Of a stretch of 40,483 nt of DNA, positions 12,961 through 40,483 are shown piece after piece (within the stretch, counting starts at the first letter, position 1; every line of letters starts with the position of its first letter). Location: the NCBI GenBank assembly GCA_009103225.1, contig RHPI01002888.1:297916-338398 (forward strand), read 5' to 3'. A program made the position numbers and the translations under genes. The notes under the pieces were generated by a model. The model was not told where the DNA came from. It saw only the letters and a list, made by a program, of their open reading frames with translations, and did not search any database. The stretch comes from Chlorokybus atmophyticus (lineage: Eukaryota > Plantae > Mesostigma and Chlorokybus algae).

Positions 12961-13837
12961 ATGGTATCGAAACCCTTGAAAGGGTTGGGTTTCTTGTTTT
13001 AAGGGAATTTTAACTATAACTTTGGTGTGTGAGGTAATTTTCTGTTTATGAACGCTACCATGGATGATGCAAGTGTTGTGGAGCTTCAGCAAGTGCTGGT
13101 GGCTGCTCATGAGGAGCTGCACCGTGTTCAAGCATCTGCGCAAGCTCAAGCGGCACAATTTTTAGAAATCTTTGAGCAAGAGCGCGCGGCTATGCCTATC
13201 GCTGCACCTGTGGCTCTTCCACCAGCCTCTCGTCATGTGAAAGTGCCAAAACGGAAGCCACTCAAGGGGCAGAGGGATGGTGACTGCGTAAAGGAGTGGG
13301 TGTTTGCTGTCTCTTTATGGTTGAAGCTCACCAAGGTACCCGTACATCTCCATGTCGATGTGGCTGCTACTTTCTTTCAAGGAGCTCTCCTTGCGCTGCG
13401 CTTGTGTGGTAGCGTCATCGTTGTGCTCGTGTGGCAGCTGGTCTTGAGGTTCTCTTTGTCACCGTGGCTGAGCTGGCCGCTGAGGTGAACAAACAGTTCG
13501 TACCGGTGCAAAGCATGAAGACGGCACGCAATCAGCTCTCTAAACTTGTGCAAACGCAGTCCATGATGGCCTACACATCTGCATTTCAGCGTCTTGCGCT
13601 CTCCATACCCAACATGACTGAGGAGGAGCAGCTGGACCGCTACACGCGCGGTTGAAGACTTTTTGTTGAAAGGAAGTTGAGCTGTGTTGAGAACGCCAAG
13701 TCTCTTGCAGAGGCCATTCGCATCGCCGAGCGTACGGACGTGTTGTATTTCAAGGATACTGTCAAAGACGTTGATTGTGAGCGCTTCACTCAGTCACAAG
13801 GAGGTTCGTATCGCTCATACCCCCCCCCCCCCCCCCC

Positions 13838-14158
13838 NNNNNNNNNNNNNNNNNNNNNNNNNNNNNNNNNNNNNNNNNNNNNNNNNNNNNNNNNNNNNNN
13901 NNNNNNNNNNNNNNNNNNNNNNNNNNNNNNNNNNNNNNNNNNNNNNNNNNNNNNNNNNNNNNNNNNNNNNNNNNNNNNNNNNNNNNNNNNNNNNNNNNNN
14001 NNNNNNNNNNNNNNNNNNNNNNNNNNNNNNNNNNNNNNNNNNNNNNNNNNNNNNNNNNNNNNNNNNNNNNNNNNNNNNNNNNNNNNNNNNNNNNNNNNNN
14101 NNNNNNNNNNNNNNNNNNNNNNNNNNNNNNNNNNNNNNNNNNNNNNNNNNNNNNNNNN
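13838..14158. other. Assembly gap (N run) flanked by poly-C, inside gag
   Basis: 321 N with C homopolymers on both sides. Confidence 0.99.
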
Positions 14159-20913: not shown

Positions 20914-23696
20914 ATGGACCTCATGCAGCTTCTGTACGGCCTGGTCCTCCTCGCCGCCGCCTCCTGGCTGCTGCTACTGCGCAAGAGCAATGCTACCTCC
21001 TCATCTAAGCTGCCGCCACCACCTGGCCCACCCGGCATCCCTGTCCTGGGCCATCTCCACCTGGTCAGCACCATAGCTGTGGTCCCTGTCCCTGTCATGC
21101 ATGGCCATGATGTTCACACTGTCCTTCTTGTCCTCCTCCTCCTCCTTCTCAGTTGGGGAAGGCGCCGCACAGAGTGGTGGAGGGGTGGGTTAAGAAGTAC
21201 GGCCCCCTGGTGCAGCTGAGGTTCGGTTCCATCCCTGTGGTGGTGGTGGCCGATCCCGCCGCCGTGGAGGAGGTCTTCGCCAAGCATGCCGCCGCCTCCA
21301 ACACAAGACCAAGACCACTGCCTGCCGCAATCGTACGTAGGGCTTTAAGACTTGTGTTTTCAATCAAGTCCTTTTCTGCCTTTTAGTGCATAACATAATA
21401 CATCAAACGTCAACACATCAGGATTTGGTAGAACATGGTGGGCAGAATGTTGGGATGGCTGAGTATGGCGAGTATTGGAAGCAGCTGCGTCGCATCATCC
21501 ACATGCACTTCCTATCCAAGAAGCAGACTCAGCAGTCTGAGGAGCGCATCAAGACAGAAGCGCAGCTACTCCTGCAGCGGGTCGCCAAGGTGAGTGTGTG
21601 GGTGTAGGTGTAGGTGTGGATGCTGGCGTGGACGTGTCTTGTCAATTACTGCATTATGTGCGCGTGGGCATGCGGGCGCGGGCGCATGTGCATGTGTGTG
21701 TGTGAAAGAGAGTGGGCACAAGTGCATGTGCGCGAGTGAAAAGTGATGTGCATGTGCATGTGTGTATGTCAAAGTGAGTGCACGCACACGCGCGTGCGTC
21801 AGTCAGAGAGAGTGCAAGTCATGTTGTTCTCTTCTGTGAGCAGCATGCGCAAAGAGGGGAGTTGATTGATCCGTCGCTTGAGTGCTCGCTGCTGACATCA
21901 AATGTGATATGGTCTTTCTTGTTCGGCAAGAGGTGCGTGGCGTGCATGAGACAAAAGCAAAAAAAAGACAACAACACAACTTTACTGTCCCCACAACCAC
22001 AATCATGCTGATACATCGTTGCTGCAGGCATGAAAGAAGTGACAAGGAGTTTCTGGAATTAACAAGCAGCATTGATCACCTGTTTGACGCCATGGCAGCT
22101 GGCACAGGTAACATGACTGCTGTAGAGTATATTATGCTACTACTATTCTCTCTGAAGCACTTATTAATGCTGATGATATTGCATCGGTACAGGTTTGGCG
22201 GACTATATCCCATGGCTGGCTCTTCTTCCCAACAAGAAGTTGCGAGACTTGGTCCCTTGGAAGAACAAATTCGAACAGGTCAGAACCTTACCTGTTCCAA
22301 TGGGTGACAATGCTTTGTTATTGCATACAGCACTTCATCATGTTGAACTACATGTAACTCGTCTGTGCGTGCATGTGTGCATGCGCAGATTTTATATAAC
22401 AACATCGCCCTCGTAAAGAAGGGATATACCAAAGGCAGTCCGGTGACCAACTTGATGGAGCACTTGATCAACGTGCAGGTGAGTATGTGATCTCATGGTG
22501 TAAACTATGTCCATCCCAACATTGGCAATGATTTGGGTAACCGTCTTGATGCAGGATGAGGAGAAGTTAACAGATTTGCAAGTAATGCTCCTCGGCAGCG
22601 ACATGATCACGGCGGGGACGGAGACGACAAGCACGGCACTGCGATTTGCACTGCCGCTTCTGGCTAGCTATCCTGAAACGCAGCGAGCTCTGCAGGTGAG
22701 CGGTGTTACATGTTAGAAGCATTGACATACTGGCAGTCATACCCGCATACGCATGCGTGTGTGCGTGCGATGCGCACGCACGCTTTGACAGACAGGCACG
22801 CACACGTGCATGCACAGTTATCTGCAATGATGTTGTTGGCTATTTCCAGGAGGAGATTGAGAAGGTTGTCGGGCGCAACCGTCTCCCAATCGTCGACGAC
22901 TTCAACAAGATGCCTCTGCTTCATTCCTTTATCAAAGAGTCCCTGCGCTACAAAGTAAGTATCAGGCTACCAACACTCCCACAAAACTGGACTCACAACT
23001 CCCTGCGCAGCCCATTCATGCCTACGGCCTCCCACACGCCACGAGCAAAGACTTGGAGATGATGGGTCATTCCATCAAGAAGGGCACGCAGCTGCTGTTG
23101 GACAATTGGACTCTCATGAGAAGCGACAAGTACTGGGACGAGCCCGAGAAGTTCAAGCCGGAGCGCTTTGTGGCTGATGGACCTCAGGTGAACAAGCGTT
23201 ACTGTGTCTATGTGTGCACGCGCATGTGTGTGTGTGTATGCGTGTGTGCTTGTACTTGTGCGTGTCTGCGTGCGTGCATATACATACACACACGCGCACA
23301 CGCATTGATTTCATCTTCATCAGTTGCGTTGGGTGTATGTGTGTACACGCGAGCATGCTTGCGCTAGTGAGGGCGAGTGCGTGCTTGTAGGCATGCAGAT
23401 TTGTGCACGCGCACACGTGCAAATCTCTCACTCCTCACCACTTCTTTCTCTTGCAGTTCAAAGCGTTGAACCCCGCCTTCATTCCCTGGAGCACGGGCCG
23501 CCGCATCTGCCCCGGCATGCTGCTGTCGCAGAACGAGCTTCTCATCACGCTGAGTTACGTGCTACACTGCTTTGACGTCGCCACGCCGAACGGGAAACCC
23601 AGCGTGCCCAATGAACACTACGGCCTCACGCTCATGCCGGAACCGTATGAACTGAAGTTTGCTATCCGGCCGGGAGCTGAGCAATTGTTTGCATGA
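20914..23696 (+). CDS. Cytochrome P450 (clan-71-like), paralog B; 11 exons, ~501 aa
   Basis: Exons 20914-21063, 21153-21332, 21422-21589, 21844-21932, 22028-22107, 22193-22278, 22389-22478, 22555-22695, 22850-22954, 23011-23187 and 23457-23696. Intron positions and phases match paralog A. Motifs: PPPPGPPG, WKQLRR, AGTETT, ESLR, KPERF, PWSTGRRICPG. Confidence 0.93.
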
Positions 23697-24049
23697 AGTG
23701 TGTGCGTATATATCTCATGTAAAGTATCATTAGGGTTTGTGTATGTATATGTTGGGGTAACTGGCAGGCAAAAATTGCTAGGAGAAGCTGTATAGACAAG
23801 TGTCGGGGTTGGCTCACTACTCAGGGGATGTTTTCATTGGCTTGAGAGCATCTTTGGCATGTACTGTTGGGGTGCATGACTGGATACCAGAGTTACTGAA
23901 CTGTGCAACGTTTGTTTAGCGATCATTGCCTTGATTCACGCATGCTTTTGAGGCCGAGTAAACGGACACTATTCCTACGCACTTTGTGCCACGGGATGCA
24001 CAATAGGCCACCGTGGCAACCATGCTTATTTGATAGCTTATCAGATACA

Positions 24050-24740
24050 TGGATTGGCAGCGGTTGAAGTAGCCCACCTGGCTTTTGGTTACTGGCCTTC
24101 ACTCTCTTTGACTCTTTGACAAATGTCGCACAAGGCTACGTAGTTGCGCACGTTGCTATGCATCTCTCGCCAATAACAACGATGCTTCAAGCTTGCCAAT
24201 GTCCTCTCTAGCCCTTGGTGTCTAGCAATGGGGACATCATGCGCTTCCTTCATCGAGTGTACCCTCATATGTTGGATGATATGGATGTACATGCGCCCGT
24301 GGTGCAAAAGAAGTCCGTCCTTCAATGCCCAGTGATCGCTTGCATTCGGACCCTTTTCGTTTAACTCTTGCATCTTGCTTCTTCCTTCCACATCTTCATG
24401 TAACACGTCTTGTATCTGGTCTACCCACTCAGGCTGCACTTGCGCGAGGACCTCCATCGCATTCACTCGACTCATGCTTCGACCACACTATTGGACGTAC
24501 CGGGCTTGTACTCGATGTCAAAGTTGAAAAGCTGAAAGAACTCCAACCATCGTGCTTGTCTCTGACATAAATGAGGCTGTGTTTGTAAGTACCTCAGTGG
24601 AGAATGATCCGTCTCAAGCACGAACTTCTTGTCTTCTAGGAAACAACGCCATTGTCGTAATGTCATTACTTGCGCCAAGAGCTCCTTCTCGTGCACGGGG
24701 TAGTTCAGCTCCGCATCACTCATTTTCTTGTTAAACAGAC
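24050..24740 (-). mobile_element. Chromovirus pol relic (RNase H C-terminus to integrase zinc finger)
   Basis: ELNYPVHEKELLAQV...ETDHSPL...HQGLERTLASLKHRCYWREMH...CDICQR closely parallels about 39270-39940 of the intact plus-strand element, and is frameshifted. Confidence 0.9.
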
Positions 24741-24846
24741 TGTGTCGTAGTGCACACAGTCAACAAGCCACCCCCCCTGAGATTCTGGGGTAGCCCTCTG
24801 CTCCAGAACTCAGTTCCTACCGACTGTGTGGGGGACCGTTGATGCG

Positions 24847-24981
24847 GCAGTCATCGCACTAGTACTCCCACAAGGGTACTGCGTCCAGTGGAGGGTCAAG
24901 GCAGTAGCAGTGCATGCCTTGATTACAGCCGTCGCATAACATCATCAATGGGTCGTCGTCGGCGCTGCCACACTTCTCGCA
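24847..24981 (-). pseudogene. PHD finger at pol C-terminus
   Basis: CEKCGSADDDPLMMLCDGCNQGMHCYCLDPPLDAVPLWEY*CDDC fits C4HC3. A TAG at 24859-24861 replaces the conserved Trp. Confidence 0.9.
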
Positions 24982-26239
24982 TCGGGTGCTGCGCAGCGGA
25001 CGCGGGTGCTGGATCTTGGTGAAGCCAGCAATGTAAGGGAGATGACAGGGCGCGCAGTTGACCATGTTGTCCTTCATGCGCTCGCCTCGTTGTCCCAACA
25101 GGTCCAGTACCCCTGTGGGGTGCACCTTCAATACCTTGTAGATAGCACGCCCGACGGAGGTATCGAGGGTGTCGCGTGTAGACGCCATACGGTAGACGAA
25201 GTCTCCTGACTCGAAGCGGCGCTCCCGCTCCTTGTAGAAACCACTGCGCACACGCTCGTAACGCAGCGTGTCGCGGTGCTGCGCGATGCGCAGGTTGTTG
25301 AAGGCCATGGGGACTGTGTGTTCGAACAGCGCACTGCGCACTGTTAGATCATACAACATGTCGTCAGGGTTGTCGAGATTGTCCACCACTCTGTCGACCT
25401 CCTGCTGTGCGCGGAAAGGGAGCAATGGCTGCCTTGAACAGTAGATAGTATGGGCTGTACTCTCGCAGGGCTGCCTGCTTGGACAGCCGGTAGCCCATTG
25501 CTACCCATGGGAGGTGATCATCCCAGGTATTCTTCTCGTAGGCGAGGACGTACTTGCGCAGTGCCTTCTTGATGGTCTGCACGGTACGCTCGGCGAGGCC
25601 GTCGGCCTGCGGGTGGTCGCGTGAGGTGCGACGGTGGTCGATGAAGCATCTGTCGATAAGCTTGTCGAAGGCTCCTCTGAACTCCGTACCCTGGTCGGTG
25701 ATGACTTCAGCGCAGCTGCCGAAGCGTCCGAGTACATGGGAGAGGAAAGCCTGGGCTACTCCCTCACTGCTCTTGTCGGGCAGGGGCACCAGCTCCACCC
25801 ACTTGGAGAAGTGCTCGATCATGACGAGGATGTAGCGGTTGCCTCGCGCTGAGGGCGCTAGGTCTCCGAGGATGTCCAGTCCCCAGCGGTAGAACAACCC
25901 GGAAATGGGAAGGGGATGCAAGGTGGCATTGCGCGTGTTGAGGCTGGCGCGAACCATGTCACACTGCTGACAGTTGCTGACGAACTCCCGCACCTGTCTG
26001 TGCACCCCATACCACCAGTATTGGGTCCTGACAAGGCTGACCGTGCGCTTGACACCGAAGTGCCCGAGCTCGGTGTGAAGGGAGGAGATGATGCCTTCAC
26101 GTGCAGCTGGTGTGGGGACCTCCTGATCTGCATCTTGTATCCGTCGATACAGCCTGTCGTTGGCCCAGCGGTGACGCTGAGTGCGTTGCCGGACGCGGTC
26201 CTTCTCGCGTGCGCTCATGCCTGCTGGAAGTTGTCCAGT
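24982..26239 (-). pseudogene. Gypsy integrase (HHCC + DDE core)
   Basis: HTELGHFG...CQQC; GLDILG; TDQGTEF; HPQADGLAERTVQTIK. One frameshift near 25430; separated from RT-RH by a single in-frame TAG at 26240-26242. Confidence 0.93.
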
Positions 26240-28147
26240 CTAAAGCAGTGCGAGGGATGGCTCGTCCAGCCAGATGTCTTGTCGTGTGTCGGTGGGTGCC
26301 AGCTCCTCATCATCCACCTCAGGGTCGCCAGCGATTGCTTCTTCTGATAAAGGATCGGTGGTGGTGATGGCGGGCTCGAGAGCAGGCATGTCCCCGTCTG
26401 CTGCTGCCTCAGCGATTTGAGTCCTGCGTCCTGAGCGTAGCGCAGCGACAGCGAACATGGTGGCCACACCTGAAGGTGCAGCTGTAGGACCCAACTCATG
26501 TCGGGCGCCTGTGGCGTCGTTGGTGCTGAGGTGGGGGTTACGGCTGAGGCCATCCGCATCCTGGTTGGCAAGGCCTGCGCGGTGTTCCACCTCGAAGTCG
26601 TACTCCTGGAGCAGCAGCGCCCATCGTGCTAACTTTCCTGTCAGGTGCTGATTGTTCATTAACCACTTGAGGGGTTGATGGTCAGTGACCAGTTGGAACT
26701 GCCGTCCAAACAGGAAGGGTCGGAAGAAGGAGATGGCCCACACTGCGGCGAGACACTCCCCTTCGTAGCTGCTGTAGTTGGCCTCAGCACTGTTGTTGCT
26801 GCGGCTGGCGTACGACACTACGCGCTCCTTCTTGTTGTTGTCATGCTGTACGAGCACGGCCCCCATGCCGAGCTTGCTCCAGTCTGTGTGCAGGATGAAC
26901 GACCTGGTGTAGTCAGGGCGTTGCAGAATGGGAGCTGTGGTGAGGCGGAGCTTCAGCTCCTGAAAGGCCTCATGTTGTGCCTCCTTCCACAAGAACTCGG
27001 TGTCCTTCTTCAGAAGTTCGTTGAGAGGCCTTGCGATCTTGGCAAAGTCCTTGACAAACCGGCGGTAATGGTTGGCAAGGCCGAGGAAGGCCCGCAGCCG
27101 CGTGAGGTCTGTGGGGGCAGGGATAGCCACCAGTGCCTCCACTTTGGCCTGCTGTACGTACACATCATGGGGCACAATCATGTGTCCTAGGTAGGGTACC
27201 TTGTGGGTGAAGAAGGTGCACTTGTCAGGGTGCACCGTCATCCCGACTTCCTTCAGCCTCTGTAGCACCTCTTCGATGTGCTGGAGATGCTCCTCATTGC
27301 TGTGACTGAAGATGAGGATGTCGTCGATGTAGCAGCGTGCGAAGTCCAACCCCTTGAGGGCTTTGTCCATGACGCGCTGGAACTTGGCCGGAGCGTTCTT
27401 CAGTCCGAAGGGCATGACCTTCCACTGGTACAGCTGCCGGTTTCCCCAGAAGGAAGTCTTGTGCTTGTCCTCCTCCTTGATGGCGATCTGGTTGTACCCT
27501 TGGCGCATATCCAGGATACTAAAGACTGTGCATTCTCCTACATCGTCAAAGATGCCTTCTGCGGTAGGCATTGGATACATGTCCTGCTTGGTCTTGTTGT
27601 TGAGGGGGCGATAGTCGCCACACATGCGCCGGTCTGTCCAGTTGCCTGCTGAATCTTTCTTCAGGGGCATGACGGTCGCGGCCGCAAAGTCCGATGTGGA
27701 CTCCTCGATCAGGCCTGCATCTAGCAGCGCCTTGCACCTCTGTTCCACCAAATCTTCTTCTAGCTTGGAGAGGCGGTACTGTCTTCTGAACACCGGTTCG
27801 GTGTCCACTAGTTCAATGTCCATCTGGTATGCTGAGCAGATGCCCAGCTCCTTCACACTGAAGCTGAATTGGCTCCTCCACTTGTTGAGGAGAGCCTCGA
27901 GTTGCTCTCGAGTCTGGCCTGTGGCCAGCGGTCCAATGGCGTGGGACCACGAGGTAGCATTGGCGACCACTGGAATGTCTTCCACAGTGACTGCTGCCTG
28001 CTCCTCCATATGGGCGGTCTCGAGGGCGGTGTGTGCTGCTTTGGTCTCCGAAAAGCGAGCAATCCACCCCCCAGCCAGGTGTTCGAGCTCCTGGAAGGAC
28101 ACATGGCGGTCCTGGAAAGCAAAGCACATTTCCAAGTACCACACCAT
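26240..28147 (-). CDS. Gypsy reverse transcriptase + RNase H (part of pol)
   Basis: 635-aa open frame with RMCGDYRPLN, LDMRQGYNQ, MPFGLKNAP, YIDD, HTDWS and TDHQPL motifs. Confidence 0.95.
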   Translation of the reverse strand: MVWYLEMCFAFQDRHVSFQELEHLAGGWIARFSETKAAHTALETAHMEEQAAVTVEDIPVVANATSWSHAIGPLATGQTREQLEALLNKWRSQFSFSVKELGICSAYQMDIELVDTEPVFRRQYRLSKLEEDLVEQRCKALLDAGLIEESTSDFAAATVMPLKKDSAGNWTDRRMCGDYRPLNNKTKQDMYPMPTAEGIFDDVGECTVFSILDMRQGYNQIAIKEEDKHKTSFWGNRQLYQWKVMPFGLKNAPAKFQRVMDKALKGLDFARCYIDDILIFSHSNEEHLQHIEEVLQRLKEVGMTVHPDKCTFFTHKVPYLGHMIVPHDVYVQQAKVEALVAIPAPTDLTRLRAFLGLANHYRRFVKDFAKIARPLNELLKKDTEFLWKEAQHEAFQELKLRLTTAPILQRPDYTRSFILHTDWSKLGMGAVLVQHDNNKKERVVSYASRSNNSAEANYSSYEGECLAAVWAISFFRPFLFGRQFQLVTDHQPLKWLMNNQHLTGKLARWALLLQEYDFEVEHRAGLANQDADGLSRNPHLSTNDATGARHELGPTAAPSGVATMFAVAALRSGRRTQIAEAAADGDMPALEPAITTTDPLSEEAIAGDPEVDDEELAPTDTRQDIWLDEPSLALL

Positions 28148-28153
28148 GCTGTT

Positions 28154-28888
28154 TTAATCCATGGCGCGCCCTAACAACTGACACTGTTGACTGATTGTCA
28201 GCGTGGAGCCTGTGATGCTGCCTGAAAAGAATCCCGTAGCACGCTCGCGCTCACGGGCATTGGGTTCTTCCAGCTGTCCAGTGTTGGAGTCTAACACCAT
28301 GCCGTCGCCTCCATTGCGGAACGCGTAGGAGCCTGGATAGGATACAAGTGTGGGTAATGCGCGGCGCCTGACCAGGCTGGTTGCACTGGTAGAAGTGGTG
28401 GCGGTCAAGGCGTGTGACCGGTTGCGATGTGCCAGGGTCCAGGATGTCATCGACGACGAGATTTCGTGGCCGATTGCTGTATAGGTATTTTGCCAGAAAC
28501 AGGTCCTCCACAATGGCCAGATTGGTCCACTTGGCGCGGACGCGGTGTGCGCGAGATCCATGACGCGCGGCGTTGATTTTGAGAGGATGCCCCAGCAAGG
28601 AGCATACTTGTCGATAGGCCTTGGCGACGTGATGCCGCTTGTCATCCTCGGAGTGCACATTCTCGATGATGTACCCCAAGGGCCTAGCGATCTGACTGGT
28701 CTGCAGGAGTTTGATGACTCTCATTAGCTCCCAGAACGGCTGTAGGCGAGGATCAGAGAGCCCGTGGCCTCTGCCTGCCCTGGAGTGCCCTTGACACTCC
28801 CATCGTGCTATCAGCAGGCCAATGTTGCCGTCGCCTGCAGGTGATCCTTGGTAATCCAGCGGATGTCCTGCGGCAGAGCCTTCTGGCT
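28154..28888 (-). pseudogene. C5 DNA cytosine methyltransferase domain (DNMT3-like), formerly fused in frame to RT
   Basis: LPQDIR; motif IV LLIARWECQGHSRAG (Cys 28794-28796); motif VI YIIENV (28656-28664); motif VIII GSRAHRVRAKWTN; motif IX ERERATGF; motif X LLGRAMD. Frameshifts near 28830 and 28370; the TAA at 28154-28156 is in frame with the RT ORF. Motif I was not found. Confidence 0.85.
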
Positions 28889-29032
28889 CCCTAGCTACAT
28901 GCTACATGAGTGGTACAATAGCTAGCAGTAGGCTGGGGCTCGCGCGGTCTTCATGCTGGTAGCCCGGGCGTGGGGCTGGGTGTAGGCATGCTCGAGAAGG
29001 ACTGGCATGCGAGGGTAGATGGCATGACAGCT
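28889..29032. repeat. 144-bp direct repeat of 34459-34602 (start of the putative LTR)
   Basis: 143/144 identical by manual alignment. Confidence 0.93.
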
Positions 29033-29181
29033 GTCGTGCCTGCCATGGTCGAGGGCAACCTTGTCTCGGACAGGCTGCGGAGGAGTGCTAGTGCTGCACG
29101 CATGCTAGTGCCGTGCATTGCATTGGAGTCATGTAAGCAAAAGACAACCCCCCAATCGTGGGCATAGGCTTGAAGATGAGC

Positions 29182-30258
29182 CTACGCGGTGTTCAGTGCA
29201 GTGGACGAGCCGATGCCGCTCGCCACCTTTGTGGTATCTTCCAATCGGTGTTGAGTGAGTGCTGGAAGGGTGTGAACCTCTGGTAGCGGGAAGACGCGAT
29301 CATCGCGGGCGACACGCGTGGTGCGCTCCCCCCCCCGCCCGAAGGTGATGGTAGTGGGGTCTGCTCCGTGCAGGATGGTTTCCCATGCTCGCTCAGCTTG
29401 CTTACCAGTTGGGACAGCCTGAGTGACGTCGAGAGCGGGCAGAGTGGCTGCGCGTGTCGCTGCAGAGACAGCGGGCTCGACGATGGCAATTGTGGCAGTT
29501 GCGACGGTACCGGTCGGTGGTGCGAGAATTGTCTCAACGCCTACGGACAGAGGCACTGCTGCAGTGGGAAGTGCACCGCCCACTGGTGCAGATTCGGTAG
29601 AGATGACGGCTGTTGCCATTGTGCTCACCAGTGTCGGCGTCCCGGTGTCCATCGGTGTACCAGGTTGTGGTGCAACTGGAGTGGGTGCTGCTGACATTGG
29701 TGGAGTCGACGTTGTAGCCGGTGTGGCTGTTGCTGCGGAGGCAGCACCACTGGTGGCTTCGGAGGAGGTGCCTGCTGATGTTGTTGCAGCTTCCCCTCGT
29801 GCTCGTCGTGATGGTTGCACGCGGAACCGAGTGTTTCTGTCTCTCTCGCGTTTTGCAGCCATCAGCGCCCATCGGGCAGCGTAGCAGGCGCGGTAGTCCT
29901 GCTCCTTGTTTTCCTCCAAGCGTGCCATACGCGCCATGAGGGCTGCCATATGATCATCAGCTGGTGGGTTGGCTGAAGCCTTGGCGGCAACAGTGGCAGC
30001 GCGCGGACGTGTCTCTGGTCCCTTACGCTGAGGAGGTCTGTTCTTCCCCCTGTAGCCTTGCTCTTCCTTGCGAACACTGGCGTTGTTGTTGTTGTTACTG
30101 CCACCAGCGTTGTTGCTGTTGTGGGCTCCAGTGTTGTTGCTATTGTAGCCACTGAAGTGGTTGCCAGTGTGGCCTCCAGTGTTGTTGCTGTTGTAGCCAC
30201 TGAAGTTGTTGCCAGTGTGGCCTGCAGTGTTGTTGCTGTTGTAGCCACCGGAGTAGTT
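29182..30258 (-). pseudogene. C-terminal part of gag of the DNMT-Gypsy (low complexity), cut off by Copia insertion
   Basis: Joins in frame with 33735-32299 (...SYNH|NYSGGY...) once the Copia and one TSD copy are removed. Confidence 0.85.
30127..30246 (-). repeat. 48-bp coding tandem repeat (~2.5 units) encoding YNSNNT(A/G)GHTGN(N/H)FSG
   Basis: Direct reading of the units and their translation. Confidence 0.88.
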
Positions 30259-30263
30259 GTGGT

Positions 30264-32298
30264 TGTTGAAGGTATTACATGGGTGATGCTTGTATCCGGT
30301 CAGCTTGCCCTTCATACAGGAGTCGAGGGCCGAAGGTACCAGGAAGAAGCGCGTGGACTTCAGACTTAGCAAGACGGTCGAGTCATGACGGACTCCGGAG
30401 CAGGCTGCTTAGTAGAGCCTTGAGAGAAATCGCGTAGCTTTGTGAATACGTAAGCTTAGCAGGCGTGGCTTAGCTTGTTGAAAAGCTCTGGTTGTGAGCT
30501 AGACAGCGTAGCTTACAGAACAGCAATCGGCTGAGTATAACGCACGCGGTGCTTGCCAATGTAGACGTGTGTAGAGACTGGCGGTGTATAAAGCCCAGAC
30601 TTGTTGCAATGAAGATAAGAGGTCACGATGTAGCATATGTGCGGATGCTATGGCGGCAGTAGCAGTCATGCTCTTGTGTTGATGTTGTTGGCGTGTCACT
30701 TGCACGTGTGTATGTCAACAGGTTATGGGCCCACACATGCTTGTGTAGGTTGATGGAGTGTGTTACAATTGTATGTATAGCTGTAGTTGCTTTGTGGTAG
30801 TGTGGGGTTGTGAGGTCTGTGAGCAGAGAGGCCACCAGCATGGACAGCTTGAAGATTGCAATTGGACTACTGTACGTTGACGACTACAACACTTGGAGTG
30901 TGAAGATGGAGCTACTACTGGCCCACAAGGAGATGCGGAAGTACATGGATCAAGAGGAGGAGATGATGGAGATCTTCTGGTGACTGAAGAAGAGTACGTG
31001 AAGTACTTGGTAGAGGAGGCGTCCTTGATACGTAGGAGCTGAAGATGTCAGCTCGTGTTGCTGAGTGCGAGGAGTACTTGGTGGAGCGTGGTGAAGCGCT
31101 CTGAGGAATGCGAGAGGCAACCCGTGGTAAGCACGTTGATGTGCTTGGTGGAAGGAAGGGGAGCAGATGGCAACCCTTGAGGTCGAGCACGGTGGAGTGT
31201 TTAATGGACCTTCTGAGAAGGGGAGCGAGGGCATACCTTGGTGAAGCACGCTAAAGTGCTTGGTACTTTGGTTGAAGCATGTGGAGTGCTTAGCTGAAGG
31301 TGCATGCGAGGAAGCGTGATGAGCATCCTGGAAGCGTGATCACTTGGAAGCTGGACATGGAGCATCCTGGAGGCGTGAAGCTTGGAGGCTATAAGCAGAA
31401 GCATGTGGACGTGGACATGAAGATGGCCATGGTGTGCGCAAGGTTGCTACATTGACAAGGGTGGTTGAGGATGGAGTTGCAAGATACCACAAGGTCATGA
31501 GTAACAAGGAGGCACAAGTAGGTTGCGATTGCGGAGCCCGTGGGAGCTGCAAGTGGTGGAAAGCAAGTTGACCAGAGGAGTCATGGGCTGATACCAGCGG
31601 CGGAGGCACGTCAACGAGGACAGATGCAGCGGGTGCATGAAGGCAACATGCATGTACAGCAAGGAGCAAGGTTGGTGGTCAACCATGAGGCTCGAGTTGC
31701 TGTGGATGTGAATGACTTCAAGATCATCCATGAGAAGCATGGAGGCATGAGACAAAAAAAGGTGAAGGCTTGCATGAGAGCAAGCGGTGTGCGTGAGTAA
31801 TGGAGGAGCTGATGTTGAAGGACAAGCTGCCCGCGTGGGAGTGTTGAAGGTATTACATGGGTGATGCTTGTATCCGGTCAGCTTGCCCTTCATACAGGAG
31901 TCGAGGGCCGAAGGTACCAGGAAGAAGCGCGTGGACTTCAGACTTAGCAAGACGGTCGAGTCATGACGGACTCCGGAGCAGGCTGCTTAGTAGAGCCTTG
32001 AGAGAAATCGCGTAGCTTTGTGAATACGTAAGCTTAGCAGGCGTGGCTTAGCTTGTTGAAAAGCTCTGGTTGTGAGCTAGACAGCGTAGCTTACAGAACA
32101 GCAATCGGCTGAGTATAGCGCACGCGGTGCTTGCCAATGTAGACGTGTGTAGAGACTGGCGGGGTATAAAGCCCAGACTTGTTGCAATGAAGATAAGAGG
32201 TCACGATGTAGCATGTGTGCGGATGCTATGGCGGCAGTAGCAGTCATGCTCTTGTGTTGATGTTGTTGGCGTGTCACATGCACGTGTGTATGTCAACA
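30264..32298 (+). mobile_element. Non-autonomous Ty1/Copia LTR element (internally deleted)
   Basis: 457-bp LTRs 30264-30720 and 31842-32298 (TGTTG...CAACA, 4 mismatches), TSD GTGGT, PBS GGTTATGGGCCC at 30721, PPT GCGTGGGAG, and a short Copia gag start MDSLKIAIGLLYVDDYNTWSVKMELLL at 30840-30983. Confidence 0.93.
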
Positions 32299-33735
32299 GT
32301 GGTTGTAGCTGTGGGCGGGCCTCAACTCTGGGAACTTGAGCCAGCAGACTGACTCCAAATGACCAGTCTTGTGACAGTGGTCGCAAACCAAAGTTGAGTA
32401 TTCTTCGGTGCACTCCTTTTGGTAGTGCCCATGCCGTCCACAGCGATGACACAGCACAGGGGCAGCAAGTGCAGCATGAGCTGACCGTTTCCCTTTGTCG
32501 CGTGCTGGTGGAGCGTCCCGGCCACGGTCGCGGCGAGGAGGCTCAGTTGTCGTGCTGACTACAGGCCGTGCGGCGCTGAAGTTGGTGTTCAGCACGTCCT
32601 TCTCATACACCAAGCGCTTGTGGATGGCTTGTGCAGTCTCGAAGGCTTCTTTGAGGGTGTAGCCAAGGGGCCTGCTGTAGTTCAGAGTCAGGCGTGTCGA
32701 CTCGCTCAGAGCAGCATCCAACTCATTGACGTATATCACTGCAGCAGCCTCCTCACTGACAATCTTGTAGTCAGTGTCCTTCAGCAGACCTTCCAGTCTG
32801 GAGTACAAGCGGAGGGGATCCTCATTGGGCTTGCGTCGGAAGCGTCTCAGCTCCTCAACCTTGCTGGTGGTCTGAGGAGGGAAGGTACGGCGCAGGGCAG
32901 CGTACAGGTCCTTGAGTGGAGAATCAGAGATGGCAGCACCTACGGTGATGGCTGGTGCGCGCAGTGCTACTGACCCGAGGGTGAAAGCGCTGCCTCCTGC
33001 ACGAGAGCCAGGCGTTGCTGGAGGTAAAGGAGTACCCCACTCTGCGACTGCCGCTTGCTGTACAGCTCTTTGTTCCTCAATGATGATGGCAGAACGGTCA
33101 AGGATGCGGACTCGACGTGTGGGCTCCTTGGACTCAACTTCTGCAGGGGTCAAGTTGACAAGTACCAGCTCTGGTTCCTCCTCCTCTGCCTGCTTGAGAG
33201 CTGCAGCTATGGACAAGCCTGTTACTGCACCTGAAGTGGCAGGTGGAACGACACCTGCTGGACGGTGCAGAGATGCAGATGCTATGGTGCTGGCAAGCTC
33301 GCCATAGCCGTCTACTCGATGCAGTTCAGCAACGGACTTCCATACATCGTGTGCTTTATGATCAAGATACTGAGCAGCAATGTGGAAAGAGATCTCATCT
33401 GACCAGTCTTTGTTCTTCAGAGCTTGCTGCCGCATCTTGGAGTGGAACTTGATGATGAACTCATCCAGCGAGGTGGTGCCGGCACGTCCGGAGAAGCGCA
33501 GGGATGTGGTTGAATTGGAAGACTCCATCTCGTTGTCGTCGCTGTCCGATGATAGTGGAGAAGCTTGATGACGAGGAGTAGAGTGGAGCGGGGTGAAGCT
33601 GGAGATGGAGCGCGAGCCTCTGCTGCTGCGGTCGATGCTCCCGTCACTGGTCCGCTCGTAGGTGAGGTTGGTGGTTGGGCTCCAACTGCTGAGGTCACCC
33701 TCGTCTATTGGGGAGAACGGGGTGGGCCTGCTCAT
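32299..33735 (-). pseudogene. N-terminal part of gag of the DNMT-Gypsy, two CCHC knuckles
   Basis: RFSG...LDEF capsid-like motif; CHRCGRHGHYQKEC and CDHCHKTGHLESVC. Confidence 0.85.
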
Positions 33736-33929
33736 ACAGCTGGTCCAGAGGTGAAAGGGTAGAGTGCTTGTGCTCTACCGCCTATCCTGATGCTGTTACC
33801 ACCCAACACACTAGTGCTTGTGCGCACTATGTGATGACAATGATATCGAATGCCCAGCGATCTATCCCTGGGTGCAGACTGCACTATCTGATGCAGATTG
33901 CAACACACTCACTTGTGCAAAGTGGGTGA

Positions 33930-34599
33930 CACTGTCAGTCAACAAGCCACTACGTTAGGTAGTGCTGTGGACACAGTTCTTTGCATGAGTGGATAGAATG
34001 ATACACTGTTAAGTGAGGTGAATGAGTGTGCAACACGTGGATACAACACCCTGACTACTCAAACAACACACCACCGTCAAGCTCACAGCAATGACAGGCA
34101 CAGTGCACAAGAGCATGCACCGTGTCTCACGCAGTAAGGGAATTCTTGGCAACCGGGGCAGCGTGCTTCCAGTTCAAGTCGCTTCACAAGCTCTTTAGAA
34201 ACAGAGTCTTTACTTCTTAGTACTCCTAGTACTCACAGTACTCACTTACAGTGTCACCAGCCAGTCTGGTGACGTGACTTCCTACTTATACATGTCAAAT
34301 CATGACTGTGCAGTGCCACGCGGGCACTAGGCCAACGGTCACATCGAGGCCTCATGCTATTTTGGAAATCTCCTAAGACTCGATATAGCACATGTGTTCT
34401 TAACAGACTTACAACTAATCAGCTACGCGCGGTCCCTACAGACAGGTCTATAAAGTAGCCCTAGCTACATGCTACATGAGTGGTACAGTAGCTAGCAGTA
34501 GGCTGGGGCTCGCGCGGTCTTCATGCTGGTAGCCCGGGCGTGGGGCTGGGTGTAGGCATGCTCGAGAAGGACTGGCATGCGAGGGTAGATGGCATGACA
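33930..34599 (-). repeat. Putative 5' LTR of the DNMT-Gypsy
   Basis: Begins TGTCA at the junction with chromovirus sequence, contains a TATAAG and a GT-rich distal part, and lies upstream of gag. The inner boundary is uncertain. Confidence 0.55.
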
Positions 34600-34602
34600 G
34601 CT

Positions 34603-35670
34603 TTCTCACGCACCACGCACAACCATGCACCTTTCGACTTTATTGGGAATAGCAACTTCATTAACTCCGCGTATGACACCTGAGGAATTGCAGACATACC
34701 GGGCTGTTTACCTCTTTTAAAGTCCACTCCCACAATGCTTGCATTTTCCTTTGCCGTGATTGCCCTGCATCATCCTAACGCAGCTGCACAACCGCCCATG
34801 CCGTCGTGCTGGGGTGGTCTTTAGCTTCAATGGGGCAATTGCGTAAGCCATGTATGGTCTCTCCATGAATGGTGAGCACGTGTTGCCTCCAATCAATGCT
34901 TGGATTGTGTTTATGTAGCCACGGTAGACCCAAAACTCCATCGAACCCGTTCTCCAATGTGATGCAGCAAGATCGCATACGCTCACTTGACCAATGCGGA
35001 CTTGCAGCTCTTTGGTCATTAATGACATTCCTTCAGTCTCGACCATTCTCTTCCATCAGCGAGCCCGACTTCTCCTCCACGCCACGGCGAGAGCCATCCG
35101 AATCGCCGTGCAACAACTTCCGCCATGAAATTGCTATTTGCTCCACTATCAATCATCAACTTGCACTCTCTCCATCTTTCTCCACCGTATCGAATGCGTG
35201 CTCGGACTCCTAAGTACTTTCGTGCTTCTTCACTAGCATAACTCACCACCATTCGAGTATACATTGTTACCATGCCTCCGTGGTCATAAATCTTCTTGCT
35301 CGAGCAACGTGTTGCACAATCCGGGCATGCTTGAGGCTACTTCCCATCCTCAGTATTAGCCTCTGCACTTACTGAGGGCAATCGTTTCCCTGCCGCACGC
35401 CGTTTTGCTCTATCGCGTTCACGCTGTTGCAACGTATGTCTCGACTAGGCGCATCTCCTCGCGCACTCCTTGGACAGTTAAAGACCAGATGTGCAGTGGA
35501 GTCACACACGTAACACTTACGCACAGCACCAGCTGGACGCCGCTCAGCGTTCCGCAGCACGTCTTCTAAGGATGACGGGGTGCGTGGCGGTGTCGAACAC
35601 ACCATCACCTTCTGCTTCAACCTCGACGCAACCCAAGCACCTGCGCGCTGCCCACGCCGTTATACGCGTC
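34603..35670 (-). mobile_element. Chromovirus relic: gag C-terminus (CYVCDSTAHLVFNC) + protease (LMIDSGANSNF)
   Basis: Parallels about 37300-38120 of the plus-strand element and is frameshifted. Same orientation and family as 24050-24740. Confidence 0.9.
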
Positions 35671-36342
35671 TGTAACAGTCAAGGCCAAATTCTGTGATTT
35701 TCATGGCCGTTTTAGGCCTTATTTGTAAGGTACATGTTTTTAATGACTTGTGGTGGATATCGGTGAGTTATGAGTCTGCCGCGGATATCGACCGGGGCCC
35801 CAAGACCAGTCCGGAAGGTGCCAGAAAACGGAGGGCCAGTCGAGAAGGGCTCGACCAGATTTCTGGAAGGGCCTGGCGCCAAGTAGTATAACTTGACCAT
35901 ATGAGCAGCAAATTAGGAGATCTTTGGTGCGTTGGAAAGGTCTAGAAGTGTACTACAAGATTCTGCAAGAATATCTTAGCTTCTAGGTCCGTCTAGCGCT
36001 AGAATCGTCTAGACAGTAGCATGTGCAGACTGGTAGGTATAAAAGTGACATTCTACAATTTGCAATACAACCTTTAGCTCCCTAGTTTCTGGTGTGCAAG
36101 CTTGGTGGTGGTTAGCAGGGGTTGCTAGCGTGTGGCTACCGGTGTGTGCTTGCTTGTGTGACGATCCAAGGCGCTACACAAGTCGGTGTGTAGCTTCGAG
36201 CGCATGCGCGTGCGTACGCGAGTGGCGGGGCGCGCGTGTGTGCTTGGCAGAGGGGGCAAGGTTCCGGTGTGAATACCGTGTCTTGGTGAGAGGGTTGTGG
36301 ATTGGACCAACTCACAGGTGACAAGGCACGAGCACCGTCACA
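35671..36342 (+). repeat. 5' LTR
   Basis: TGTAACA...GTCACA, followed 2 nt later by a tRNA-iMet-like PBS. The distal part resembles the LTRs of the 12337-18000 element. Confidence 0.85.
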
Positions 36343-36436
36343 ACTGGTATCGGAGCACGGTTTACGAAGGTGAGAGAGGAAGTGTGTGGGCGTTTACACT
36401 TTTCATTCGGAAGCGGAGTGTAGTGTGTTAGTGGAG

Positions 36437-37465
36437 ATGGAGGATGCTCGCATGGAAGAGCTTCAAGCTGCCATCTTGGCACTGAGGGAAGAGCTTCATC
36501 ACACTCAAGCGGCGGCACAAGCACAACGCGAGGCGTATGAGCATGCGATGGCGCGTGTACAAATTCCCATGGCATCAAGCTCGCGCGTGCATGTGAAGGT
36601 GCCAAAGCCCAAGCCATTCAGGGGTCAACGTGATGGAGATGCAGTGGATGAATGGATTTTTCAAGTATCGTCTTGGTTGAAGCTCACGGAGGTGCCCACG
36701 CATCTGCACGTGGAGGTTGCAGCGACATTGCTTGAAGGTGCAGCACTTGTGTGGTGGAGGCATCGATGTACGCGTGTTGCAAACGGGTTGGCGCTACCAT
36801 TGACCACCATGGAAGAGTTGGCACTGGAGGTCAGGCATCAATTTGTTCCCGTTGAGAGCGTGAAGGCCGCACGCGACAAACTTGCAGCCCTTGTGCAAAT
36901 GGGGTCGGTGATGGCGTACACGGCCGCGTTTCAGCGATTGGTGATGTCCATACCCAATATGACCGAGGAGGAGCAGTTGGACAGGTATACACGTGGTTTA
37001 AAACCTTTGGGGCGTAAAGAAGTGGAGCTACGGGACCCGAAGACACTCGCGGAGGCTATACGCATCGCGGAGCGTCTCGACGCGTTGTACTTCAAGTCCA
37101 CCACAAGAAACACTGACTGGAGGCAAAGGCATGGTGATCAGCCCCGGGGAGGCTTTCAACATGCATGGAGACGAGGAGAACCAAGTTCAGCACTTGCCAA
37201 TGGAGGTGGAGCTGACTCTGGGCCTGCACCAATGGAGGTGGGTGCCATACACACGCATGGAAGTGAGGCGAAGCACGGCGGACGTGGTGAAAGAGGTAAA
37301 GGTGTGCGCAAGTGTTATGCGTGTGGGTCGACGGAGCATTTGGCGTACGGATGCCCCAAACGAAGCACGCAAAGGCCAACACCGGATGGCAACCCTCGCC
37401 GTGATCGTCGCGTCAACACCATGGAGCAAAATGGCGTGGAGCAGGAAAACGACTTCCCCCAGTAG
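36437..37465 (+). CDS. Gag (retrotransposon gag domain + CCHC knuckle)
   Basis: PKPFRGQRD...DEWIF; QMGSVMAYTAAFQRL; YTRGLK; CYACGSTEHLAYGC. Confidence 0.92.
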   Translation: MEDARMEELQAAILALREELHHTQAAAQAQREAYEHAMARVQIPMASSSRVHVKVPKPKPFRGQRDGDAVDEWIFQVSSWLKLTEVPTHLHVEVAATLLEGAALVWWRHRCTRVANGLALPLTTMEELALEVRHQFVPVESVKAARDKLAALVQMGSVMAYTAAFQRLVMSIPNMTEEEQLDRYTRGLKPLGRKEVELRDPKTLAEAIRIAERLDALYFKSTTRNTDWRQRHGDQPRGGFQHAWRRGEPSSALANGGGADSGPAPMEVGAIHTHGSEAKHGGRGERGKGVRKCYACGSTEHLAYGCPKRSTQRPTPDGNPRRDRRVNTMEQNGVEQENDFPQ

Positions 37466-37486
37466 GTGAGGAGGCTACTGCTGGGG
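37444..37486 (+). promoter_or_regulatory. Predicted -1 programmed ribosomal frameshift signal (G GAA AAC + hairpin)
   Basis: Slippery-type heptamer 5 codons before the gag stop, pol in the -1 frame, and a downstream stem CCCC-CAGTAG / CTACTG-CT-GGGG. Equivalent sites occur in two other copies. Confidence 0.7.
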
Positions 37487-40483
37487 ATAGGAAGGAGCCT
37501 CATGCACGGACGGATGCTGTGACATTTCCATTAAAGAAGCAAGAAGAGATGGCTTTGAACGCGCCAATGGTGGTGAGTTATGCAAACGAGGAGACAACAA
37601 AGTACTTCGGGCTTCGAGCACACATTTGCGATGACCAAGGACGATGGAGAGAGTGTAAGCTCATGATTGATAGCGGTGCCAACAGCAACTTCATGAGTAT
37701 TGATATCGCGCGGCGTTACGGTTGGCTTTCGTCATTACGAGGAGGTGAAGTGAAGCTCGCTGATGGAGAGCCACCCTCTGGAGGTGATGGCGCTGCGTTT
37801 ATGACCAAAGAGTTGTGCGTTCGCATTGGGAAGATGAAGGAGAGCATGCGATTTTGCTGCATCACCCTACGGAACGGGTTTGATGGGATTTTGGGACTAC
37901 CGTGGCTATGGCAACATAATCCAGCCATCAATTGGAGGAAGCGCGTGCTCACCATCGAGCGAAACGGTGGAGAGTCCATTCAAGCTGCATCGGACGTCAT
38001 CGAGGCGCGGCACGCACAATTAGGTGGTACGACAATTGCCCAGATCTCTTATGTGCAATTGAGGAAGTTATTGTCTCCACGGAAGGCAAAGGCTGCATGG
38101 TTGTGCGTGGTGCGCGAAAACACTGCAAAGTCAGCACCGGAGCTGAGTGACGATGTTCAGACGGCTACTATGGACCCCGAGGTGTGTAAACTTGTTAAAG
38201 AATACCAAGATATCATGGTGGACGGACTTCCATCTGGTCTACCACCTCCACGGAGCGTAGACCACCGTGTGGAGCTGATTGAGGGCGTGCACAAGCCACC
38301 GTATCGACCCGTATACAAGTTGTCACCTTTGGAACTGGAAGAGGCCGAGAGGCAGGTGGCGGACTTGCTGAAAAGAGGCTACATCAGGCCTAGTAAGTCC
38401 CCCTATGGTGCACCTATTTTGTTTGTACGAAAGAAGAACGGGAGCTTGCGCATGTGCGTCGACTACCGAGCTCTCAACAACATCACGAAGAGGAATTGCT
38501 TTCCACTCCCACGTATCGACGAGTTGCTGGAGCAATTGCAAGGTGCGCAGTACTTCACAACACTTGATCTTGCTGGAGGTTATCACCAAATTCGCATCGC
38601 GCCCGAGGATGTGGAGAAAACAGCTTTTAACACACGTTATGGGCACTACGAGTGGTTGGTCATGTCCTTCGGACTTACGAACGCACCGGCAACATTTCAA
38701 ACGCTTATGAACAGCGTTTTTGCTGACTTGATTGGTAAGGGAGTCCTCGTGTACCTCGACGACATTTTGGTGTACGCGACAACAAAGGAGGAGCACGTGG
38801 CACTTCTACGGCGCGTGTTGCAGCGTTTGCGCGAACACAAGTTGTACGCCCAGCTACAGAAGTGCAAATTCTTGCTTCGAGAGGTGGAGTACCTAGGCCA
38901 CATTGTGTCGCATGAAGGCATCAAGCCGGACCCCAACAAAGTGCAGGTGGTGCGCGAGTGGGCTGCCCCGACCAATGTAAAGGAGGTGATGTCCTTTTTA
39001 GGCCTTGCGGGGTATTATCGCAAGTTTATTATGGGGTTTTCGCGCATAGCTGCTCCCTTGACTACCCTACTCAAGAAGGGAAAGCATTGGAGCTGGTCAG
39101 CAACAGAGGAACATGCATTTGCTGCGTTGAAGAAGGCGCTGACGGAGGCACCAGTCCTGGCTCACCCCAACATGGAAAAGACATTTATTTTGGCTTGCGA
39201 CGCGTCCGACACAGCCGTAGGAGCTGTTTTGCAGCAAGACCATGGCAACGGCCTTCAACCAGTAGCATTCTTCAGCAAAAAGATGAGTGGTGCGGAGCTG
39301 AATTACCCCGTGCACGAGAAGGAACTTTTAGCGCAAGTCATGGCGCTACGACAATGGCGTTGTTTTTTGGAAGGCAAAAAGTTCGTGCTTGAGACGGATC
39401 ACTCTCCACTGAGGTACTTACAAACACAACCTCATCTGAGTCGCAGACAAGCTCGATGGCTTGAGTTCTTTCAACTTTTTGACTTCGATATCAAGTACAA
39501 GCCCGGTACGTCAAATGGTGTTGCTGACGCGCTGAGCCGGCTTAATGCAATTGAGGCACTCGCTCAAGTGCAGCCCGAGTGGACCGACCAGATTCGGCAA
39601 GTGCTTCGTGAAGACACGGAGGGTATGAAAGTGTTGCAAGAGCTGGAAAATACAGCTACGGACACAAGTGGGCACTGGTCAATGCGCGACGGGCTGCTGT
39701 GGCACCATGGGCGCTTGTACATCCCCAACGTCGCGCATATCCGTGTGAAGTTGCTGAAGGAAGCTCATGACGTGCCCATTGCTGGTCACCAAGGGTTGGA
39801 AAGGACTTTGGCAAGCTTAAAACAGCGTTTTTACTGGCGAGAGATGCATCGCGATGTGCGCGACTACGTGGCGTTGTGCGACGCATGCCAAAGGGTGAAG
39901 GCAAGCAACCAAAAGCCAGGTGGGTTGCTGCAACCTCTCCCTGTGCCATTGTCCAAGTGGGAGCAAGTTACCATGGACTTTATCACGGGGCTACCAAAGA
40001 CAAAAGAAGGGTACGACGCTATACTTGTGTTCGTCGATAAAACCAGCAAAATGGTACGCTTGGCACCGTGTAGTGAGTCTTGCACGGCACCGGAGGCAGC
40101 ACGCTTGTTCGTGAAGCATGTATTTCGTTCTCATGGATTACCACGAAGCATTGTGAGTGATCGCGACCCGCGCTTTACAAGTAAGTTTTGGGAGGCGCTG
40201 CATAGTGCACTGGGTACCACACTGAAGTTTAGCACGGCATTCCACCCGCAAACTGATGGGCAAACGGAGCGGGCCAACCGTGTGATCGAGGACATGCTGC
40301 GTTGCTACGTTAACGCGCGACAACACAATTGGGAGGAGCTGCTTGAGTTGGTTGAGTTTGCGATCAACAACCACCACAATGCAAGGACAGGTGTCACCCC
40401 CTTCCTTATGAACTACGGGCAACATCCATTGACACCGTTGACGGCATGGACACCGCGACGACATGACGTGCGTGTGGAGGCAG
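37450..40483 (+). CDS. Pol (protease, RT, RNase H, integrase), -1 frame to gag, open to window end
   Basis: Manually translated with no stops: IDSGA, RMCVDYRALN, YLDD, CDASD, HQG...CDAC, MDF, SDRD, QTERANR. Confidence 0.93.

Follow-up and report, generated by a model that had tools for sequence, protein, structure and literature searches.

Retrotransposons that carry their own cytosine methyltransferase are a known class, as was noted when the present locus was first annotated, with examples from the dinoflagellate Symbiodinium and the charophyte Klebsormidium (PMC5890265). KnitGypsy-Dnmt3 was described in 2018 from Klebsormidium nitens by de Mendoza et al. as an element that combines DIRS-like repeats with Gypsy domains (PMC5890265). 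A 2026 preprint names the kind "streptophytes (Gypsy-DNMT3)" (bioRxiv 10.64898/2026.05.21.726589), and both this preprint and a 2025 paper (PMC12344493) speak of streptophytes in general; the accessible text of PMC11244446 adds nothing further on Gypsy-DNMT3. Cytosine methylation is the main tool of host defense against transposons.

A 40,483-nucleotide stretch of DNA (the window) was analyzed from Chlorokybus atmophyticus, a streptophyte alga of the lower-branching grade (PMC10796333). The region under study holds the methyltransferase of a Ty3/Gypsy element, one dead and rearranged copy of a family with many copies in Chlorokybus. The element is a Gypsy-DNMT3 of the KnitGypsy-Dnmt3 kind, likened to it by description and placed in a tree built without Klebsormidium sequences, since the protein searches recovered none named as Klebsormidium.

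The element in the window

The domains of the element (Table 1) follow the Gypsy order of reverse transcriptase (RT), RNase H (RH), and integrase (IN). The DNA methyltransferase (DNMT) lies in the Pol ORF, has no introns, and is in frame with RT save for one stop. The chromodomain that follows the integrase of chromoviruses is absent, and a PHD finger is found there instead. The tyrosine recombinase of DIRS elements is also absent; the integrase produced rve and H2C2 matches with DDE residues. The 5' repeat A and its internal copy match over 144 nt with 1 mismatch, and its start motif is common to the window and to repeat A of 11 metagenome loci. This copy cannot transpose.

The gag region is interrupted by a young, non-autonomous copia-like element, with LTRs that are 99.1% identical, only a gag remnant inside, and a primer binding site that we take to be of the half-tRNA-iMet type. 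Family contigs join across this insertion. Elsewhere in the window there are three tandem, intron-rich cytochrome P450 genes (700-3280, 9076-10470, and 20914-23693). Two of the three match Chlorokybus models Chrsp180S02881 and Chrsp180S02882. One P450 exon, at a distance of 4.4 kb from the DNMT, has 100% identity over 80 residues to the latter, whose label carries the prefix used for Chlorokybus atmophyticus (PMC10796333). Plain Ty3/Gypsy elements occupy 35671-40483 and 13234-16782 on the plus strand. The first of these combines uninterrupted reading frames for gag and pol with a TGGTATC primer site near 36347 and contigs of high depth, and so probably belongs to a young family.

Table 1. Features of the DNMT-bearing element and of the DNA that immediately flanks it, in the 5' to 3' direction of the element
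Feature	Position	Strand	Remarks
Older plain Gypsy, gag-end/protease fragment	34603..35424	-	About 1.1 kb of its RT gone
5' terminal repeat A	33794..34599	-	Starts TGTCATG at 34599; inner end between about 33950 and 33794
gag 5' part with zinc knuckle	32300..33774	-	493-codon ORF; zf-CCHC E 1.1e-3
Nested non-autonomous copia-like element in gag	30264..32299	+	458-bp LTRs, 4 differences; 5-bp target duplication
gag 3' low-complexity tail	29236..30263	-	Family contigs extend it by about 1 kb absent from the window
Displaced repeat B tail and GC spacer of the B-A junction	29030..29233	-	End CACGACA (29038-29032); family-contig joint, junction motif
Displaced first 141 nt of second repeat A	28889..29029	-	Joined to DNMT via 4-nt microhomology 28889-28892
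DNMT3-type C5 methyltransferase remnant	28157..28888	-	Motifs II/III to X, without motif I
II/III-like motif LPQDIRWI	28876-28853	-	Translation
Motif IV WECQG, catalytic Cys	28802-28788	-	Translation
Motif VI IIENV	28670-28656	-	Translation
Motif VIII HRVR	28547-28536	-	Translation
Motif IX ERERATGF	28252-28229	-	Translation
Motif X LLGRAMD	28177-28157	-	Translation
In-frame TAA between DNMT and RT	28154-28156	-	Family contigs differ at this site
Linker, reverse transcriptase, and RNase H	26240..28153	-	RVT_1 E 1e-34; RT_RNaseH E 5e-37; RT YIDD at 27331-27320; ORF ends in a stop
DDE integrase, H2C2 zinc finger and rve core	25000..26239	-	Frameshift at about 25435
C-terminal PHD finger	24841..24993	-	PF00628 E 2e-7; stop near its end
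G-rich polypurine tract	24777-24771	-	G5-7 run at equivalent place in relatives
Head of repeat B	24770-24735	-	Copy breaks off at 24735
Older plain Gypsy, RNase H-integrase fragment	24043..24741	-	Host of the DNMT-element insertion

A DNMT3-type methyltransferase remnant

Translation of the minus strand revealed a DNMT remnant in three pieces directly upstream of the Gypsy RT. The original prediction of ordered C5 methyltransferase motifs IV, VI, VIII, IX, and X was borne out: all five were found in canonical order, followed by the single predicted in-frame TAA and then, in frame, by the RT-RNase H ORF. Frameshifts occur at about 28832 and about 28363, and there is an in-frame 3-base gap at about 28431. 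PF00145 matched the middle frame alone with E values of 5.5e-4 to 7.6e-4, under the Pfam curated cut-off, and the C-terminal frame produced no Pfam match. After frame repair the match to a C5 methyltransferase profile is strong. A profile of 28 intact relatives, from which the window copy was left out, matched the DNMT read-through, in which X stands for every break, with an E value of 4e-86, and among 880 six-frame segments of the window it matched two DNMT frames only. The read-through has 50% identity to P0002 and 48% to P0030.

The DNMT3-like style noted at the outset was upheld by these relatives. A six-row profile of relatives found human DNMT3A first in the PDB (E 4e-16), with DNMT3C and DNMT3B next and M.HhaI (E 3e-9) and DRM2 (E 6e-5) lower. 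A model of the P0001 DNMT domain (pLDDT 72, pTM 0.74, shallow alignment) fits DNMT3 chains in every listed row, with a best TM of 0.68. The assignment rests on the relatives' profile and fold because the middle frame of the window alone has weak PDB matches (best M.HaeIII, E 0.03). Judged by profile and model, the methyltransferase is DNMT3-type and unpermuted; the permuted order of DRM enzymes, with motifs VI-X before I-V, was not found. Fold and motif order are the same in host DNMT3A, 3B, and 3C, and these enzymes and plant DRM2 have about 20-24% identity to the element DNMT. Unlike host DNMT3 and DRM2, the element DNMT is part of a polyprotein and lacks PWWP and ADD domains, and it is not permuted like DRM.

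Family contigs and rearrangement of this copy

Parts of the element are present in four of the seven listed runs (X1-X4); the listing contains no RNA run with the element, which says nothing about its expression. Contigs from X1 and X2 tile the element at about 97-99% identity while the unique flanks are barely covered, indicating a multi-copy family. The window and these contigs disagree at six places: the stop between DNMT and RT, both DNMT frameshifts, the stop after RNase H, the integrase frameshift, and the PHD stop. Past 28892, they run on into sequence that by eye resembles the stretch before motif II/III of intact relatives. A 1219-nt X2 contig, of which 252 nt aligned to the window, extends the gag tail past 29236. 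No single contig spans the element, and the pieces together suggest an intact copy of the Chlorokybus family.

In X1 (depth 104.5) and X4, family contigs join position 24735, just past the PHD finger and the G7 tract, to 29233, and a loose end in X2 matches the same joint. The piece from 29233 to 28889 is therefore material from the 3' end, and in the window copy this displaced piece took the place of the protease and the start of the DNMT. The inactivation that had been attributed to two frameshifts, a stop, and loss of motif I is confirmed for the first three changes, whereas motif I was replaced together with the protease by the displaced piece (28889-29233) and did not decay. The rest of the 3' end of the element is missing from the window copy. 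Contig depth was 92 over repeat B in X1 compared to 53-59 over the DNMT, and 60 over B in X2 compared to 32-56 in the deeper contigs. Both comparisons would fit two copies of B per element, but depth is not equal to copy number and is given no weight here.

The order of gag, B-A piece, and DNMT in the window might also come from misassembly of a repeat rather than from a true rearrangement. The family is highly repetitive, and the joints specific to this copy occur in no listed X1-X4 contig, though the runs barely cover the unique flanks. We consider misassembly unlikely: the joints sit at 4-nt microhomology and at positions that complement each other (24735 and 29233), the old Gypsy on the two sides aligns in one orientation, and a nested insertion as well as point changes are peculiar to this copy.

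Pol architecture and phylogeny of relatives

The middle frame of the DNMT identified five proteins at 47-50% identity, all with PF00145, one with RT-RH-IN, and three with an upstream protease. DNMT fusions in a single ORF include P0001, P0017, P0030, P0074, and P0098, among others. When 126 proteins were ranked by RT-RH score, every one of the 30 closest had a DNMT, a PHD finger, or both; a Closterium model and Marchantia MARPO_0091s0058 are among them. The latter (P0072) is a DNMT-RT-RH fusion of this clade in Marchantia polymorpha, a genetically tractable land plant. In 59 metagenome loci, the DNMT is followed by RT in 28 of the 36 with room for it and preceded by a protease in 30 of 35. The Pol order of the relatives is accordingly read from sequence as PR-DNMT-RT-RH-IN-PHD, and the protease of the Chlorokybus family would by comparison also be placed before the DNMT. 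The ancestral Pol proposed in the original prediction (DNMT-RT-RH-IN-PHD) had the domain order right and omitted the protease that precedes the DNMT in relatives.

A quick RT-RH tree of 71 rows placed all 35 DNMT-bearing and 12 PHD-bearing rows on one branch (SH-aLRT 100), apart from 24 others, which comprise 22 hand-chosen Gypsies and two from the window. Matches shorter than 330 residues (300 for the two window Gypsies) were left out. Since rows were gathered by similarity to the window element, the tree shows a clade and not its limits. DNMT and RT distances are correlated over 29 elements (r 0.94), with 0 of 2000 permutations as high; six elements were left out because their matches were too short. 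Near-copies inflate this correlation, which is 0.74 for 350 more distant pairs. These distances show a long co-descent of DNMT and RT.

The catalytic Cys of motif IV and the EN of motif VI are both conserved in 29 of 29 elements. Sixteen of 66 pairs, all of them relatives and not members of the Chlorokybus family, passed the dS filter. The sole unbroken pair among them, L002/L006, has a dN/dS of 0.11, and the other 15, every one involving decayed copies, range from 0.41 to 0.62. The 12 PHD-only proteins were considered as cases of DNMT loss, which was rejected: in 11 the sequence begins 50-192 residues ahead of the RT core, and the remaining one carries a relic. The clade member P0116 has an open Pol frame in which residues from about 174 to 480, ahead of RT, form a degenerate DNMT-like relic that lacks the catalytic motif. 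The E value of this relic is 2.5e-5 in a comparison with one sequence and 0.006 in a comparison with the set of 126 proteins; the match covers residues 174-242, and the remainder was judged by eye. Catalysis is therefore dispensable in some lineages.

These relatives also bear on whether the window copy alone captured a host DNMT3 fragment with no role in the element, which is scarcely credible even though the break and rearrangement of this copy fall right where the DNMT begins: the family contigs carry the DNMT and its start unbroken, many intact relatives have an intronless fusion in a single frame, and DNMT and RT diverge together.

An exhaustive profile search (E up to 1e-30) recovered 442 clusters at 50% identity and a second, more diverse architecture, RT-RH-DNMT-IN-PHD. 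Among the best 150 library matches, RT precedes the DNMT in 45, and the 54 with at least 450 residues downstream have integrase after the DNMT in 51 cases and RT in 2. Most long proteins among these 150 (P0129-P0272) have this order and not PR-DNMT-RT. The GxxC motif is mostly intact in the second architecture; among the best 150 it reads GWECQ in 58 and GWPCQ in 34, and was not found in 22. In a quick tree of 92 rows, from which 20 earlier rows were dropped, one branch (SH-aLRT 100) within the DNMT/PHD group unites the 41 that have a long RT match. Because the RT-RH-DNMT-IN branch nests inside this group, the DNMT has shifted its position within Pol at least once, in one direction or the other.

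Split repeats, internal junction, and target duplications

The original description of an LTR retrotransposon holds for a Gypsy retrotransposon and fails for two ordinary LTRs. A pair of canonical LTRs combined with a tRNA primer site was considered and rejected, as no such site follows repeat A and the relative L032 shows split repeats. L032 (1679-10805) is complete and consists of A, coding region, G-rich tract, B, A, and B. Its termini read TGTCATG and CACGACA, and a 4-bp target duplication flanks it. Exact 4-bp target duplications occur in three of the four loci with both ends: AAGG (L032), TTCA (L025), and CACA (L033). The end consensus of the relatives is TGTCATG...CA(C/T)GACA. The internal B-A junction consists of two element ends joined by two bases, forming a near-palindrome. 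It follows the PHD finger in L002 (8654), L006 (8233), and L032, which are three of 12 loci with PHD; seven of the other nine have B and no A after B. L025 (4843-14170) is arranged A-coding-B with a target duplication and could reflect B-B recombination, assembly collapse, or direct integration.

For the Chlorokybus family, repeat A, the polypurine tract (PPT) with B, and the B-A junction (29038-29023 in the window) were found, and the last B is not within the window. The family probably has an A-coding-PPT-B-A-B plan, with ends that its integrase would recognize. A 15-nt word is common to inner repeat A (33936-33950) and the start of repeat B (24757-24771; blast E 0.13), and a similar word occurs near the end of A in L032; this shared word might serve strand transfer. 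The conservation of the B-A junction suggests that replication follows neither the standard LTR route nor that of DIRS. One might speculate that a circle cut at the B-A junction would give the A-coding-B-A-B plan. There is precedent for a palindromic end-to-end junction as an integrase substrate in foamy virus, where palindromic LTR-LTR junctions are reportedly cleaved by the viral integrase (PMC1180852). The comparison is an analogy only, as the foamy-virus junction forms in unintegrated circles whereas the B-A junction is fixed inside the integrated element.

Possible roles of the methyltransferase

We lean, with some reserve, toward a Ty3/Gypsy family with a Pol of protease (by comparison with relatives), DNMT3, RT, RNase H, integrase, and PHD finger, in which the DNMT methylates CG sites of freshly made double-stranded copies of the element, while reverse transcription proceeds or right after it. 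As a part of Pol, the DNMT would be packaged beside RT and would be the first to meet the cDNA. The PHD finger at the integrase end might read histone H3 tails and so affect site choice. A rough parallel is the ADD domain, which reads H3 tails for animal DNMT3. A new copy would arrive with a CG-only mark, like active genes in Klebsormidium, where CG methylation is found on active gene bodies and CHG and CHH methylation on silent elements (PMC5890265). Since CG marks active gene bodies in that alga, cDNA with CG marks would look like a host gene. In favor of this reading, DNMT3s borne by retrotransposons of Symbiodinium showed de novo CG methylation in yeast (PMC5890265). Against it, KnitGypsy-Dnmt3 copies in Klebsormidium carry CHG and CHH methylation (PMC5890265), and the negative yeast result for the KnitGypsy-Dnmt3 domain and the relic of P0116, both taken up below, weigh in the same direction.

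Synonymous sites of the Chlorokybus DNMT family have lost CG (odds ratio 0.24) and kept CWG (1.56). The CWG odds ratio is 2.4 in host P450 exons and 0.29-0.34 in the three plain Gypsies of the window. In counts, CWG was kept at 208 of 253 synonymous sites in the DNMT family (24859-33774), compared to 54/129, 35/82, and 17/56 in the plain Gypsies (14542-16782, 24043-24741, and 36437-40482, respectively). Loss of CG is not specific to the DNMT family, with odds ratios of 0.31-0.45 in host exons and plain Gypsies. All 15 of the 15 metagenome relatives lack CWG retention (0.16-0.61), and escape from CHG methylation is therefore not a general feature. Both results count against the reading of CG self-methylation. 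Differences between the window copy and the contigs give an unpolarised hint: of 10 sites where the family lost C, 6 are CG, and of 22 sites where this copy lost C, 2 are CG and 8 are CHG (p 0.005), with contexts hand-picked among 40 of 59 and 40 of 1244 rows.

The same conserved catalytic motifs would serve a DNMT that acts mainly after insertion or in trans, silencing its own promoter, sister copies, or competitors, and thereby slowing transposition and sparing the host. This option was raised by de Mendoza et al. (PMC5890265), and the PHD finger could tether the protein to chromatin. The position of the DNMT within Pol, between protease and RT, favors access to cDNA in the particle, and a multi-copy family with 97-99% identical contigs implies recent spread; we regard such action after insertion or in trans as rather improbable. 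Lower again we place a non-catalytic role, in which the DNMT is a DNA- or nucleosome-binding module (DNMT3L-like) or a shield of the cDNA against editing, with methyl transfer in second place. Expressed on its own in yeast, the KnitGypsy-Dnmt3 domain left the DNA unmethylated, a result its authors deem inconclusive (PMC5890265), and P0116 keeps its relic in an open frame, but invariance of the motif IV Cys and motif VI EN in all 29 elements and the presence of GxxC in most of the best 150 library matches argue against this role.

Self-methylation of new copies could be part of a wider scheme, doubtful as a whole: an old, large Gypsy superclade reaching from Chlorokybus to liverworts (442 clusters) would pair a DNMT3 writer with a PHD reader and would have moved the DNMT to a second Pol site; its integrase would open a circle at the palindromic end-GC-end junction to give A-coding-B-A-B and 4-bp duplications; and CG self-methylation of the circle would disguise new copies as genes and, in Chlorokybus, spare them CHG silencing. 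With the Chlorokybus family, the question why a retrotransposon keeps a de novo methyltransferase becomes testable through methylome and extrachromosomal-DNA data.

Comparison with known systems

Phygy and Selgy (Neumann et al. 2019, PMC6317226) are likewise chromodomain-free Gypsy elements of non-seed plants with little non-coding interior. They differ from the element described here in that a methyltransferase is unmentioned in the accessible text of that paper, and Phygy prefers NCGN targets, a pattern that AAGG, TTCA, and CACA of the relatives do not fit. EpiLTRs of Cymbomonas and Euglena have a DNMT4-related domain with Dam and a chromodomain (bioRxiv 10.64898/2026.05.21.726589), whereas the window element has no Dam or chromodomain match. 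SymbioDIRS-Dnmt3 and SymbioLINE-Dnmt of Symbiodinium also carry a retrotransposon-borne cytosine methyltransferase, and SymbioDIRS-Dnmt3 shares both a DNMT3 in Pol and A-coding-B-A-B repeats; these elements use tyrosine recombinase or LINE machinery in place of the DDE integrase and PHD finger found here (PMC5890265).

KnitGypsy-Dnmt3 likewise has an intronless, unpermuted DNMT3-type domain in a Gypsy Pol ORF, conserved catalytic residues, purifying selection, and a streptophyte alga as host (PMC5890265). Its DIRS-like split repeats with Gypsy domains (PMC5890265) have a complete counterpart in the relative L032 and a probable one in the Chlorokybus family. Its host is Klebsormidium nitens, compared to Chlorokybus with relatives in Closterium and Marchantia. 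The accessible text of PMC5890265 leaves a PHD finger, 4-bp target duplications, an end-to-end junction, and a second DNMT position unmentioned; outside the figures, "PHD" is absent from the main text and supplements and "TSD" from the supplements. A literature search found no paper on this element in Chlorokybus, its PHD finger, its junction, or the second DNMT position, and figures, supplementary trees, and preprint supplements may include some of the taxa.

Recent amplification in one of the earliest-diverging streptophyte lineages, together with relatives in both Zygnematophyceae and a model liverwort, points to an element as old as streptophytes or to transfer between them. As a broken copy, the window element is unremarkable; what it contributes is an extension of the clade to a streptophyte that diverged very early and testable leads on ends, domain position, and CHG retention. 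Beyond the accessible accounts of the systems above, the analysis adds the very early-diverging host, the PHD finger, split repeats with 4-bp duplications in relatives and an internal junction that the Chlorokybus family shares with them, a large nested clade with the DNMT between RNase H and integrase, and CHG sites that this family retains and neighboring Gypsies have lost.
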